This document shows positions 188 through 25,434 of a stretch of 26,024 bases of DNA, piece after piece. Source of the DNA: a phage. The notes beneath the pieces are model-generated. The model searched no databases. It worked only from the letters and a program-made list of their open reading frames with translations, and was not told the origin of the DNA. Each line of letters opens with the position of its first letter. The first letter of the stretch is position 1. The stretch lies in NCBI GenBank assembly GCA_012702815.1, contig GCA_012702815.1_3927.1; one strand, written 5' to 3'. Both the position numbers and the translations under genes were made by a program.

Positions 188-2887
188 ATGGAAAACGTAG
201 ATTTTAAAAACTTACATTTAGTTGGTGATACAGAAACTGATGGTTTACTCCTTGAGTTCACTAAAGTGCACGTAATGGCTTTCGCAGACTATAAATCTGA
301 CGATGAAGAGCCACCTGTATGGGTCTTTACAGATGAGCCTATCCTCGGTCACAAGTACACTAAGTACATTAAGGGTGGTTTACGTGAAGGTGTTGAGTTT
401 GCGTTAAAGGCAAAACGACTTTGTATCCATAATGGTCTCGGTTATGACTGGTGGGTTTTCAATCACATTGCACCTGATTTATGGAACTTTGATAATCCAA
501 AGTGTAAGCCGTGGAGTAATTTCTTTCAGGATTCTCTTATCCAGTCTCGTGTTCAGTGGATGGATAGACCAACTCCAAAGGGTTATAAAGGTGCTCATGG
601 CTTGGCTGCATGGGGTGCTCGTGTTGGTGTTCGTAAACCAGAGATTGAACATTGGGGTGTATGGAATGCAGAAATCTTCACTCGTGTTGTGGAAGATATC
701 CGTATTAACGCCAAAACTAAACGCGCACTGGATAATGAGTATCTCAAGCTTAAGAAGTGTGGTATAGACACTTATGAAACCTACATGCGAGCTAAAGAGA
801 CATCTTTCTGGATGAGTCAACAAGCTATCAATGGTTGGAAAGCTGATAAAGAGCTTATGGAGTTCCATGTAAAGGAACTTGACAAGTTGACTAATGAGCT
901 TGCTTCAGAAGTTGAACCACATCTTCCTCCAACTATTAAGACCAAAGGTAAAGTCACTGGAGAAGAGTTTGCAAAAGCTTGGAATGAGTATGTTGAAGCA
1001 TTTGGTCACGCAGATGGACTGAAGAGAATTACCAAGTACCCTAAGACGAAGTATCGTCAGCAGGTACGTAACGGTGAGATGCAGACATATGAAATCAAGC
1101 CATTTGGTAAGCCAACTACAAAGATTTTTAACATTGAAAAGAGAAATTGCTATACACCAACCAACTCTGTAACTGGTGAAGAGTACAAGGAGGGTTTTGT
1201 AGCAATGAAGGATGCTCGTGCAATTTGCAATGAGTTGAATGCAAAGATTGGTAAGAAATGCAAAGACTGGAAGCCAGTAAAAACAGTTAAAACTGTGAAG
1301 TACTATAACAGTCATGTTGTTAACCACTTTGAGCTTGAGTCAAGTCGCTACACAGGATTGATTGATGCACCATATACACCAATTGAGTTTGAAGTTTCTC
1401 GTATGACTCAGGTAGCAGTTGTTAAAGACTACTTGAAATCAGTTGGTTGGATTCCAGATGACTGGAACTACAAGAAAGATTCAGACGGTCGCCCTGTCAA
1501 AGTTTGTCGTTTCAAAGACAACAAAAAGATGATTACAAAGCATCCTAAGTGGCAGGAGATGGTTGAACGGTGTGGGTTGAGTTATGTTGAACACGAAGGT
1601 GTCCAGTACATCGAACATAACTGGTCTGTGAAGAAGTACACGGATTTGCTTGAACCTTGCTTAATCCGTACTTCACCAAAACTTACTGAATCTTCTTATG
1701 ATACGATTGAAGGTGAGCTTGGACAGAAGATTGCTAAATACTATACTTTGATGCACCGACGCAGAACCATTGAGAACTCAAAGGATGATGAAAAAGGTTG
1801 GCTAAACCAGATTCGTCCAGATGGTCGCCTTAGTGCTGGTGCAATGGTATTTGGTACTTCAACTGGACGTATGACACAATATGGTATTGTAAACGTACCG
1901 TCTGGTGCTGCTGTCTATGGGGAACCAATGAGGGCAGTGTGGATTTGTGAAGAAGGTACTAACGTTGTCTCTGTAGACATGAACTCAGCCCAGCTAGTTC
2001 TCCTTTGTAACTTTATGGGTGACAAAGACTTCACCAAAGCGGTAACGCAAGGTAAAGAAGAGATTGAGTTTATTCGTCAAGAAGATGGACGCTATTACTG
2101 CAAACACTTTGATGAGTACCTCAACCCAGAGATTGATAAGTACCTTCGTTATGACTCTGAGAATGACCTGTACGTTGTCTATTCAGGGACTGATGCACAT
2201 ACACTGAATAGTATTTACTTTAGCTTGAATGATGAGCAGGACATCTTGACTTGTCGTGCTACTCAGGATGAGAACCTTCTTCATGAGATTAGTAAGGGTC
2301 GTAAGAAAGCTAAGAATGGTATCTATGCACTGCTGTTCGGTGCAGGTGATGAGAAGTTTGCTAAGACGATTAAGGCTGCAACTACTCAGGAAGGTGCGCT
2401 GACTAAACAGACTTACTTTATCCGTTTGCCTAAAATTAAGAAGTTGCTAGATGACTTGGAAGCTGACTACAAAGCGACTAAAAAGGCACTTGAAGAGGTT
2501 TTTGGTAAGACCGCTGCAATCTCTAAAGGGGGATTTGTAAAGGTTGCTGGAGCTTGGTTGTGGTGTAAATCTCCACACAAACTGTTGAACTATCTTTTGA
2601 TGGGTTCAGAGGCTCAGATTCAAAATGAGGCAATTAACCTTGCTTGTCGTCGTATGATTGACGAAGGTTTGATGAAGTTAAATGGTCGTAAACCAGCTAT
2701 TGGTGCTCGTTTGCTCTGCGCATATCACGATGAAACAAGCTGGGAATGTCCAGAAAGTATGACGGCAGAAGTGAAAGCAGTTACTGACTGGTATTATGGA
2801 CAAGCTTCTAAGAATTTAGGTCTTAAGAAAGAAACACTTGTAACAGGTACTGGTAAGGTTGGTAAAAGCTGGCTTGAAGTGCACTAA
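188..2887 (+). CDS. DNA polymerase, family A (Pol I / T7 gp5-like) with N-terminal 3'-5' exonuclease domain
   Basis: ORF 158..2887; start placed at ATG 188, 5 nt after GAGGGAG (176-182). Exo motifs DTETDG and HNGLGYDWW near the N-terminus; polymerase motif A (VSVDMNSAQL), motif B (KAKNGIYALLFGAGDEKFA) and motif C (YHDE) in the C-terminal half. Confidence 0.9.
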   Translation: MENVDFKNLHLVGDTETDGLLLEFTKVHVMAFADYKSDDEEPPVWVFTDEPILGHKYTKYIKGGLREGVEFALKAKRLCIHNGLGYDWWVFNHIAPDLWNFDNPKCKPWSNFFQDSLIQSRVQWMDRPTPKGYKGAHGLAAWGARVGVRKPEIEHWGVWNAEIFTRVVEDIRINAKTKRALDNEYLKLKKCGIDTYETYMRAKETSFWMSQQAINGWKADKELMEFHVKELDKLTNELASEVEPHLPPTIKTKGKVTGEEFAKAWNEYVEAFGHADGLKRITKYPKTKYRQQVRNGEMQTYEIKPFGKPTTKIFNIEKRNCYTPTNSVTGEEYKEGFVAMKDARAICNELNAKIGKKCKDWKPVKTVKTVKYYNSHVVNHFELESSRYTGLIDAPYTPIEFEVSRMTQVAVVKDYLKSVGWIPDDWNYKKDSDGRPVKVCRFKDNKKMITKHPKWQEMVERCGLSYVEHEGVQYIEHNWSVKKYTDLLEPCLIRTSPKLTESSYDTIEGELGQKIAKYYTLMHRRRTIENSKDDEKGWLNQIRPDGRLSAGAMVFGTSTGRMTQYGIVNVPSGAAVYGEPMRAVWICEEGTNVVSVDMNSAQLVLLCNFMGDKDFTKAVTQGKEEIEFIRQEDGRYYCKHFDEYLNPEIDKYLRYDSENDLYVVYSGTDAHTLNSIYFSLNDEQDILTCRATQDENLLHEISKGRKKAKNGIYALLFGAGDEKFAKTIKAATTQEGALTKQTYFIRLPKIKKLLDDLEADYKATKKALEEVFGKTAAISKGGFVKVAGAWLWCKSPHKLLNYLLMGSEAQIQNEAINLACRRMIDEGLMKLNGRKPAIGARLLCAYHDETSWECPESMTAEVKAVTDWYYGQASKNLGLKKETLVTGTGKVGKSWLEVH

Positions 2888-17519: not shown

Positions 17520-22906
<5,387 letters not shown>

Positions 22907-22907
<1 letters not shown>

Positions 22908-23146
22908 TACATTTTTCCTGCTCTTCTAAGTTCGTTGTAAGCAATTTCCTCTTTATACGACCTCTGAATCTCAAGAAATTGTCTCAATGATAATAAATCA
23001 GAGAATGTCATAGCAAAGAGTTGGTCAAGTGTTTCTTTACACCCTTCCATACCATAAATAGCAAGCACAAATTTCATCTCGTCTGCTTCTTCATAGGTTG
23101 CCTCTACAGCAGCATCAGTCAGTGGTGTCTGTAGAGTGTTACCCAT
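22907..23146 (-). CDS. tail assembly chaperone, downstream (frameshift-extension) ORF
   Basis: 79 aa ORF in the -1 frame relative to the upstream chaperone ORF; that frame stays open back to a TTTTTTC slippery heptamer. Confidence 0.6.
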
Positions 23147-23148
23147 GT

Positions 23149-23547
23149 TTACTGAGAAGTTAGGCTTTTGAAAATGCTTGCTTCGAAAAAACTTCCGAAG
23201 TTTGCCTCCAGCGCAAATGCTAAGTAATCAATAAATTCACCATAGTTTGCTTGGAAGTATGTATCAATATTAAGTGGGAAGTCATCAACAGTTGCCCCTT
23301 GAAATAGTAAGGTAGCCATTTCTTCAAGGTTGATTTCTTCAATTCTGTCAAAACAAGCTTCAACAAGTTCTTTAAATGGAACCATTGGAGCTTCTTTCTT
23401 ATCTTTATCAGTCAGGCTTGACAGCATCTGTGCAAATGTTGGAACAACAATTTTACCCAACTTCATAGACATCTTAATACCATCTCTTGCCCCAAGCAGA
23501 ACGATATTTACTTTCTTACCATTAATTACTCTAGATTCTGTTTTCAT
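23149..23547 (-). CDS. tail assembly chaperone (gpG-like)
   Basis: 132 aa acidic protein between the tube and tape measure genes; contains slippery heptamer U UUU UUC near its 3' end; RBS AAGGAA. Confidence 0.65.
   Translation of the reverse strand: MKTESRVINGKKVNIVLLGARDGIKMSMKLGKIVVPTFAQMLSSLTDKDKKEAPMVPFKELVEACFDRIEEINLEEMATLLFQGATVDDFPLNIDTYFQANYGEFIDYLAFALEANFGSFFEASIFKSLTSQ
23185..23191 (-). other. candidate -1 programmed ribosomal frameshift site (U UUU UUC)
   Basis: On the - strand mRNA the 0-frame codons AGU UUU UUC form an X XXY YYZ heptamer; the -1 frame then reads FFRSKHFQKPNFSVNM without a stop into ORF 22907..23146. Confidence 0.55.
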
Positions 23548-23570
23548 TGTGATTCCTTAATACTTTAAAA

Positions 23571-23607
23571 GAAACAAAAAAGGGGAAGACCTTTTAAAGT
23601 CTCCCCC
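23571..23607 (-). terminator. intrinsic terminator downstream of the tail tube gene
   Basis: 9-bp stem with one mismatch (23582-23590 / 23599-23607); on the - strand it is followed by TTTTTTGTTT (complement of 23571-23580). Confidence 0.5.
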
Positions 23608-23619
23608 TTATAGGATTTA

Positions 23620-24066
23620 TTAAACACTTGACGCTGGAATTGTAGAAGTGTAGTCTAACTTCTCACAACCAAAAATCCAAGTTTTAGAGTTCTGGTCACG
23701 ACCAAGTTCAATCTGTGGTAATTCCTGCAACCAAGCATTAATACCAGTTGCCAGAACAGAGCCTGATGGGTCGTAGATTACGAAGTTAGAAGAGATATCT
23801 TCTTCAAGTTCCATATTGTCTTGTTTAGCTTGAATTGCAGAAAGCATCTGATTAGAGAGAGAAGTCTGCATTAGCTCAATCTCAATAGTACCTGTCTTGT
23901 CTGCATTTCTTGTCAGAGCAACCTGACCACCTGCACCTACAACTGGTGTCACAAGTGGTGATGTTCTCTGTAGACGTAAGAATGAGTCTGGGGCAAAGCC
24001 TTCAATGGCAATACCATTCCAGCTACACACAACGTCTTTAGGGGAATATTGCTGATACATAGCCAT
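23620..24066 (-). CDS. tail tube protein
   Basis: 148 aa ORF immediately downstream of the sheath gene; RBS AGAGGTAA; followed by a terminator hairpin. Confidence 0.7.
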   Translation of the reverse strand: MAMYQQYSPKDVVCSWNGIAIEGFAPDSFLRLQRTSPLVTPVVGAGGQVALTRNADKTGTIEIELMQTSLSNQMLSAIQAKQDNMELEEDISSNFVIYDPSGSVLATGINAWLQELPQIELGRDQNSKTWIFGCEKLDYTSTIPASSV

Positions 24067-24081
24067 TCCAATTTACCTCTA

Positions 24082-25434
24082 TTATTCGTAAGCCACTGTA
24101 CCTTTCAAGTCAACATCCAAGATAGCCCCTGCCAAGATACCTGCGAAGGTAACATCTTTCAGGATACGAGCTTTCTTGTCTGCCAAAGCAACTTGAGAGG
24201 CTTTAGGAACATTAACTGTGTAAGATGACAGGAAGTTTCTGTTGACTGCTCTTTGCAGAGAGGTTTCAATGACTTGACGAATACGGGTAATACCAGTATC
24301 ATCATAAGTAATCTTACCACCCTTCTGGTTAATTAGCAAGTCTCTCAGAGAAGTTTTCAGGTCTGATTCTAACCAGTCAACACCACGGACGATATCAATC
24401 CATTCCCCACCAGAAGTAATCCCTCTACGAACCACTGGAACACCACCATCAAGGTCAATAAAGTTACAGTGACGTGCATCTAAAGCTGACTTCTGAATAC
24501 TTGTCAGAGGTCTCTGATTAGATGGCTGTAGAGAAGCAGCTACGCCAGTTAACTGTGCGTTACCCCAAGCAATTGAACCTGCATCATACGGAGCGCCATA
24601 AGCAATGTATGCCATTTCTGGATAGTCTTCTGCTGCTGTGTGATGCCACAAGCAAACGGTACGAGTGTACTGACTCTTAGCAAGCTGTGCTGGAACATCA
24701 TTTGCACTGGCTAATTCTGTACCTTGTAGGGCTGTTACATCAGAGTTAGCTGTAAAGAAAATCTTCTTACGAGCTTGAATCTCAGAAGCCATTGCTAAGA
24801 CAAACTGTTGAGTTCTATCTTCTGCTGCAATGAAATACCAGTCAGTTGAATAAGCCTCAATAGCTGCCAGAGCAGTCGATGCTGTGTCAGCAGTTGTACT
24901 TGCAATTGACACTGTTTGTGCTGTAGTGGTAACCTTCACGAAGTCATTGTCACCCGCTTTGGTGATTACCATTGTTGCTGAACCACCAGCACCAGTTACA
25001 TTGACGGTAACAAGGTCTTTTACAGAAGGCTCTGCTTCAATCTGAGTTTTAAGCTGCTGTAGCACCTTCTCAGCAGTATCTTCTGACTGTGAAGTGTACT
25101 GGAATGGCTGAGAAACTCCACCGCTCACAGCTACAGTTAAAGAATAGTCGGTGCTCTCAGTAACCTCATCAGGAATTGATACAGTGTACTGCATAGCACG
25201 TCTACCAATATAAAGCTGAGTTACTTTAGGAGTCTGACTCCAAAGTTGTTTAGCAGCCTTATATGCAGCAGAGTTTTCATCGAAATCTTCAGCAACTTCA
25301 GTTAAGGAAGTGTAACCACGGACTCTTTCTTCAAAGTTATCTGTTGAAGCTAAAAATAGTGGTAGCCCAAAACCTTCTCTTGTAGTTCCTGCGGTGTTCA
25401 ATGTAATATCTACATTAACAATTGGATTCCACAT
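24082..25434 (-). CDS. contractile tail sheath protein
   Basis: 450 aa ORF at the head of the sheath-tube-chaperone-tape measure order; RBS AAGGGG. Confidence 0.75.
   Translation of the reverse strand: MWNPIVNVDITLNTAGTTREGFGLPLFLASTDNFEERVRGYTSLTEVAEDFDENSAAYKAAKQLWSQTPKVTQLYIGRRAMQYTVSIPDEVTESTDYSLTVAVSGGVSQPFQYTSQSEDTAEKVLQQLKTQIEAEPSVKDLVTVNVTGAGGSATMVITKAGDNDFVKVTTTAQTVSIASTTADTASTALAAIEAYSTDWYFIAAEDRTQQFVLAMASEIQARKKIFFTANSDVTALQGTELASANDVPAQLAKSQYTRTVCLWHHTAAEDYPEMAYIAYGAPYDAGSIAWGNAQLTGVAASLQPSNQRPLTSIQKSALDARHCNFIDLDGGVPVVRRGITSGGEWIDIVRGVDWLESDLKTSLRDLLINQKGGKITYDDTGITRIRQVIETSLQRAVNRNFLSSYTVNVPKASQVALADKKARILKDVTFAGILAGAILDVDLKGTVAYE

Follow-up and report, generated by a model that had tools for sequence, protein, structure and literature searches.

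The tail assembly chaperone gene of this phage very probably contains a programmed -1 frameshift site, the heptamer U_UUU_UUC, through which a 213-aa long form of the tail assembly chaperone would be made. The heptamer lies in slippery register close to the end of the shorter chaperone frame and leads into a -1 frame that stays open as far as the tape measure gene, and this arrangement is kept in every relative examined, down to 23% protein identity. The analysis was carried out on a 26,024-nt stretch of phage DNA, referred to here as the window, together with its relatives in the sequence databases.

The chaperone locus and its reading frames

By its sequence, the source of the window is a Felixounavirus, a Felix O1-like myophage of the Ounavirinae (Andersonviridae). 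Over positions 22800..23700, identity is 99% with Salmonella phage PK6 and 97-99% with more than 200 Felixounavirus genomes, Felix O1 among them. On the minus strand the genes follow the order sheath (25434..24082), tube (24066..23620), G (23547..23149), T (ending at 22907) and tape measure (22907..20679), with the chaperone pair flanked by the tail tube and tape measure genes, the placement expected of a G/GT pair. The neighboring genes could be identified by Pfam and phrog matches and include, besides these, a tail terminator and a Dit-like protein. The 450-aa sheath matches phrog_205 ('tail sheath') and Pfam DUF3383, the 148-aa tube protein encoded directly upstream of the chaperone gene matches Pfam KPP10_Orf10 and phrog_280, and the 742-aa tape measure protein matches phrog_4036 (E = 0) and Pfam TMP_3. 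The position of the pair agrees with the tail module to which the original prediction had assigned this region, and the frameshift pair in turn confirms that assignment.

The 132-aa ORF at 23149..23547 (minus strand), which ends under standard decoding at a TAA at 23151..23149, is the short form of the chaperone (G, or TAC-N). It matches Pfam PF21822 (Phage_TAC_15) with 71.5 bits against a cut-off of 22 (E = 1.2e-19), as well as phrog_1613 and phrog_3840, both described as 'tail assembly chaperone'. The original prediction had placed U UUU UUC at 23185-23191, near the 3' end of this ORF, with the -1 frame open through the whole of the downstream ORF and a fusion of about 210 aa, and all of these statements hold. 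The heptamer (23185..23191, minus strand) lies 11 codons ahead of the G stop and is made up of the last base of the Ser119 codon (AGT), Phe120 (UUU) and Phe121 (UUC); as its first T is a third codon position, it has the X_XXY_YYZ register of the 132-aa ORF. The -1 frame is open from 23227 to a TAA at 22909..22907 and overlaps the G ORF by 76 nt (25 codons). The part that would be translated after a slip (T, or TAC-C) occupies 22907..23185 on the minus strand and amounts to 92 codons before the stop. With a slip at the heptamer, C23185 would be decoded once more, now opening the codon CGA (Arg122), and the resulting GT product has a computed length of 213 aa, with the sequence ...GSFF-RSKHFQKPNFSVN-MGNTLQ...AGKM.

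Most database records present a 79-aa ORF (22907..23146, minus strand), which matches phrog_4963 'tail assembly chaperone' with E = 2.8e-55, as a separate gene. From the sequence comparisons we read it as the C-terminal part of the T segment and not as an independent gene. The modeled fusion aligns to phrog_3840 from residue 1 to residue 151, an alignment that takes in the -1 linker, and it scores above G alone; searching the PDB with the fusion sequence brought up nothing meaningful.

At its 3' end the T frame runs into the tape measure gene, the ATG of which overlaps the T-frame stop as TAATG (22907..22911, minus strand), with AGGA 9 nt upstream. Given this overlap, translation of the tape measure gene could be coupled to ribosomes in the T frame, and not to those in the G frame. 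On the other side of the pair, between the tube and chaperone genes, lies a strong hairpin resembling an intrinsic terminator, with 13 pairs at 23609..23580 followed by a T run (to 23571, minus strand), and the Michonne and Meda records carry a terminator annotation at the equivalent gap. Such a hairpin may leave the chaperone and tape measure genes less transcribed than those for sheath and tube. In one database relative, Shigella phage vB_SflM_004 (MK295205.1), the sheath gene is broken into several short CDSs, and the chaperone/tape measure region aligned over the first 158 nt of the query and no further, which suggests poor sequencing or assembly, or else a rearrangement.

Conservation of the heptamer and weighing of other explanations

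The relatives examined comprise five Ounavirinae lineages, one Yersinia phage, Vequintavirinae and environmental contigs, and all of them keep the heptamer, its register and a long -1 extension. TTTTTTC is present in the same register in Felix O1, ekra, Michonne, Silverhawkium (Mooglevirus), SUSP2 (Suspvirus), Panisse and Hena2 (Kolesnikvirus) and Pectobacterium phage Wc4-1, and in these phages the -1 ORF has 97-107 codons and ends at the tape measure start. The same three features recur in Yersinia phage P778 and in the Vequintavirinae phages A5-4 and Av-05, at 27-30% protein identity. The G stop of P778 is found 27 nt past the heptamer and a stop in the -1 frame 3 nt ahead of it; across the genomes, the stretch in which a shift could occur is thereby narrowed to ~37 nt, starting 3 nt before the heptamer. 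Taken with the Phage_TAC_15 and phrog_4963 matches, and with the joined CDS annotated in the same genus, the conservation of the heptamer in all relatives bears out the original reading of the two ORFs as a G/G-T chaperone pair.

To sample more widely, IMG/VR was scanned with a degenerate peptide pattern ending in FF, in which codon choice was left free; the sample thus covers family members with FF, and those that lack it, and hence lack this heptamer, fall outside. We analyzed 57 of the loci returned, namely the divergent ones and a few Felix-like representatives, and each of them has either T_TTT_TTC (49 loci) or T_TTT_TTT (8 loci). Their -1 extensions are 69-116 codons long, and the +1 extensions are erratic, at 0-69 codons. 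When the sequences of the relatives were grouped into 28 clusters below 60% protein identity, with GC contents of 34 to 66%, the Ser or Cys codon before FF was found to end in T in all 28, against a background of 35%, and the first Phe codon to be TTT in all 28, against a background of 41%, including in genomes of up to 66% GC. With TTY as the second Phe codon, NNT TTT TTY is fixed throughout the clusters, although P values for this codon choice are nominal because the sequences are phylogenetically related. A further mark of dual coding comes from synonymous codon identity, which in 10 divergent sequences is ~0.35-0.65 along the G gene and reaches 0.94 in the 9 codons after the heptamer, a peak that is expected where two frames are both translated.

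Two other tetramers in the overlap, A_AAC (GCA AAC) and U_UUC (AUU UUC), were considered as shift sites; they are in register, yet they are not conserved in distant relatives. The +1 frame was likewise dismissed as an extension, being open for just 7 codons in the examined Felixounavirus loci and erratic in relatives.

The downstream part of the long form is also maintained where it lacks an initiation codon of its own. The head of the downstream part is without a nearby start codon in Kolesnikvirus, the relative locus L042 and many others, yet in these phages, environmental ones included, the -1 frame is still open and the T peptide is conserved, so that in Kolesnikvirus the T part can be made only by a change of frame. 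The -1-frame linker FFRSKHFQKP is kept between Felixounavirus and Kolesnikvirus. For the Erwinia phages Panisse and Hena2 and for Wc4-1, the records treat the ~236 nt from the chaperone gene to the tape measure gene as non-coding, and we find that this stretch is an open -1-frame continuation homologous to T (1557..1792 in locus L004, 1570..1805 in L009 and 2115..2349 in L005).

These comparisons bear on three other accounts of the locus. For a single sequence, coincidence of a heptamer with an open -1 frame that has no function is not negligible, because ORFs of at least 100 aa carry in-register XXXYYYZ heptamers at a rate of 0.0028 per codon, and a 25-codon overlap in this AT-rich genome would be expected to hold ~0.07. 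TTTTTTC itself occurs once on the minus strand of the 26-kb window, and among the 21 in-register heptamers of the window this is the sole one with a -1 extension (92 codons) that is longer than the zero-frame remainder (11 codons); at the other 20 the extension ends within 22 codons. Two of these 20, A_AAA_AAG and A_AAA_AAT at 22614..22620 and 22719..22725 (minus strand), lie in the early part of the tape measure gene and have -1 extensions of just 5 and 9 codons, so that a slip there would merely truncate the protein. Within one sequence, the heptamer and the open frame together are thus suggestive of something other than chance, but they are not decisive, and it is conservation across relatives that decides the matter. 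Recurrence in 28 divergent clusters over the whole range of GC content, together with the peak of synonymous identity, effectively refutes coincidence, to which we give next to no weight. We also consider it very unlikely that the two ORFs are independent genes, with the 79-aa ORF translated only from ATG 23146, perhaps by termination-reinitiation, and the heptamer merely a set of Ser-Phe-Phe codons. This ATG does lie 2 nt after the G stop, and most GenBank and RefSeq records, including that of Felix O1 (NC_005282), list two separate CDSs. However, the 18 nt upstream of the ATG contain no SD-like motif, the relatives devoid of a start codon have kept the frame and its peptide, and the linker between heptamer and ATG, RSKHFQKP, is conserved as a -1-frame protein sequence. 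The fixed choice of codons for Ser-Phe-Phe, moreover, is not explained by a protein motif by itself. In Felixounavirus some independent translation of the 79-aa ORF by termination-reinitiation may nevertheless occur as a minor route.

The same GT fusion would arise if RNA polymerase stuttered on the T6 run, giving mRNAs that lack one U and are then translated in the standard way. For bacterial RNA polymerase to slip efficiently, a run of about 8-9 or more bases is usually required, and the window, like 49 of the 57 relatives, has T6. The site is nonetheless homopolymeric, the run is T7 or T8 in the other 8 relatives, and long A or T runs are used for slippage by phage and bacterial genes (Atkins et al. 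2016, PMC5009743). What makes transcriptional slippage an improbable origin for the fusion is, besides run length, the placement of the run, which always has the exact X_XXY_YYZ register; the arrangement V-TTT-TTT-V, with a run of equal length, is found in none of the 28 clusters. A conserved SD-like element upstream, at a spacing like that in dnaX, also suits a ribosomal mechanism.

Proposed slip and sequences flanking the heptamer

For the programmed -1 frameshift, we infer a ribosomal event of low efficiency. Most ribosomes would make the 132-aa G (TAC-N) and terminate at 23149, and a minority would slip while U_UUU_UUC has tRNA-Phe on UUU in the P site and on UUC in the A site. The two tRNA-Phe would re-pair one base back, from UUU_UUC to UUU_UUU, in a tandem -1 slip, after which decoding would resume in the -1 frame at CGA (Arg) and proceed through the 79-aa ORF to yield the 213-aa GT (TAC-NC). 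The GT frame would close at 22907, where its stop overlaps the tape measure start codon. Such a site is in keeping with the finding that UUY A-site codons and all-pyrimidine heptamers are prone to frameshifting in E. coli (PMC4066793). On the model of lambda gpG/gpGT and P2 E/E+E', the N-terminal G domain that both products share would cover the tape measure protein, T, as the less abundant extension, would bring in the tube protein, and a fixed slip frequency would set the G:GT ratio for tail assembly. Our literature search for Felix O1-like phages found no experiment demonstrating the fusion protein or measuring the shift.

A downstream stem-loop or pseudoknot, which had been suggested as a feature to look for, was not borne out as a conserved element. 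In 11 phages, the sequence 3' of the heptamer was folded in lengths of 50, 70 and 100 nt and compared with shuffles; the 50-70-nt stretches gave z-scores of ~0 and fold no better than the shuffles, and RNAalifold on 8 Ounavirinae-related sequences returned zero consensus pairs. In these sets, then, there is no conserved 3' structure within 5-9 nt of the heptamer, which is where a dnaX-type stem-loop or pseudoknot would lie. Phage G/GT sites commonly lack such a structure, and the frameshift reading is none the weaker for it.

Three local structures were rejected as candidates. The nearest downstream hairpin (23136..23101, minus strand) starts 48 nt past the heptamer and 10 nt past ATG 23146, inside the coding part of T, and was dismissed as a stimulator because it is too distant and is absent from Kolesnikvirus. 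It has a perfect 8-bp outer stem, CUCUACAG/CUGUAGAG, and its equivalent in Mooglevirus and Suspvirus has a stronger inner stem (CCCCG/CGGGG). A second hairpin, CUUCGGAA/UUUCGAAG, contains the heptamer, so that a ribosome positioned there would have melted it, and it was set aside for this reason; the whole 121-nt region has a z-score of -0.79. A terminator-like match at 23211..23195 followed by a T run has a weak 6-bp stem, and the count of such matches is within shuffle expectation.

On the 5' side, an SD-like GGAGG (23205..23209, minus strand) lies 13 nt upstream of the heptamer, within the ~10-14 nt at which a dnaX-type element would be placed, and is a candidate stimulator. Most relatives have GAGG or GGAGG 12-13 nt upstream of the heptamer, and the Glu codon that forms the motif is GAG and not GAA in 21 of 25 clusters, compared with 39% in the rest of the same genes. 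Since the SD-like stretch lies upstream of the shift it is not dual-coding, and this makes a role at the RNA level, such as a dnaX-like pairing with the anti-SD, plausible. The conservation pattern suggests that GGAGG may act as a 5' stimulator of the -1 shift, and interference by a ribosome-binding sequence ('RBS interference') is a recognized stimulator of backward shifts (PMC10274946). Extended to the PF21822 family as a whole, the idea would be of a bipartite signal in which T_TTT_TTY is combined with an SD-like GAGG or GGAGG 12-13 nt upstream, dnaX-like, in place of a 3' structure. We advance this only tentatively, judging its chances to be somewhat short of even. The literature cited here on this chaperone frameshift mentions the GTTTTT motif and not the SD-like element.

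Relation to known frameshifts and significance

The closest counterpart is the frameshift already annotated in the Ounavirinae, in Salmonella phages Mushroom and Meda and in Citrobacter phages Moogle, Michonne and Mijalis, which has the same heptamer and the same 213-aa product. The Felixounaviruses Mushroom (RefSeq YP_009600435.1) and Meda (AXY86324.1) carry a two-piece CDS of 641 nt encoding 213 aa, named 'Tape measure chaperone frameshift product' in the Meda record (AXY86324.1), and the overlap DNA of both is identical to that of the window. Michonne has a 641-nt joined CDS as well, and its 'ribosomal slippage (47149)' falls inside the equivalent heptamer. There is no substantial difference between these annotated frameshifts and the one described here, except that the nearest relatives of the window (PK6, ekra and the Felix O1 RefSeq record) are without the joined annotation. 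A chaperone frameshift is mentioned in the genome announcement of Moogle (PMC4319497), the announcement of Michonne refers to a shift of the chaperone to the -1 frame (PMC4591319), and a GTTTTT motif is conserved in the chaperone genes of 231 Andersonviridae phages (PMC12846349). With the annotation in Mushroom, Meda and Michonne and these published statements, the finding is one that was already known.

The slippery site of phage lambda is G_GGA_AAG. As in the window, the lambda gpG/gpGT pair consists of two overlapping ORFs between a major tail gene and the tape measure gene, and a strong 3' structure is not required, according to the passage on lambda in PMC5009743, which summarizes Levin et al. 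1993 and Xu, Hendrix & Duda 2004, 2013 and 2014. In the lambda model given in that passage, G binds the tape measure protein and T binds the tube protein (PMC5009743). Lambda differs in being a siphophage, and in that its shift has been shown experimentally, whereas that of the window is predicted from sequence comparison; its chaperones belong to another sequence family, and we claim no similarity to them. A contractile tail is shared with P2, in which, by the description of Christie et al. 2002 in the P2 passage of PMC3091744, E/E+E' are likewise related by a -1 shift, at a T-rich heptamer (TTTTTTG) close to where the short ORF ends. The same passage reports for P2, too, no predicted downstream hairpin and a site that is kept among relatives despite low protein identity (PMC3091744). 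The P2 heptamer, as described there, ends in G, in contrast to the C or T found here, the chaperones are of a different family, and the products, at 91 and 142 aa, are shorter.

The dnaX gene of E. coli resembles the window in having an SD-like element upstream of its slippery heptamer, about 10 nt 5' of it in dnaX and 13 nt for the GGAGG of the window. It differs in having a strong 3' stem-loop and the heptamer A_AAA_AAG, whereas the window is without a conserved 3' structure.

The frameshift is thus very probably real; it is ordinary and already known for the genus and the family, and as a G/GT frameshift is a textbook feature of long-tailed phages, the scientific gain is small. For annotation, it means that the 79-aa 'gene' of this phage and of most of about 300 database relatives should be entered as the C-terminal part of the 213-aa product, and that the apparent 236-nt intergenic gap of Kolesnikvirus and Wc4-1 is coding. 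The sole mildly new element of the locus is the SD-like motif that is conserved at a synonymous site. If the bipartite signal were true, it would represent a widespread and easily testable natural -1 frameshift that is stimulated only from the 5' side.
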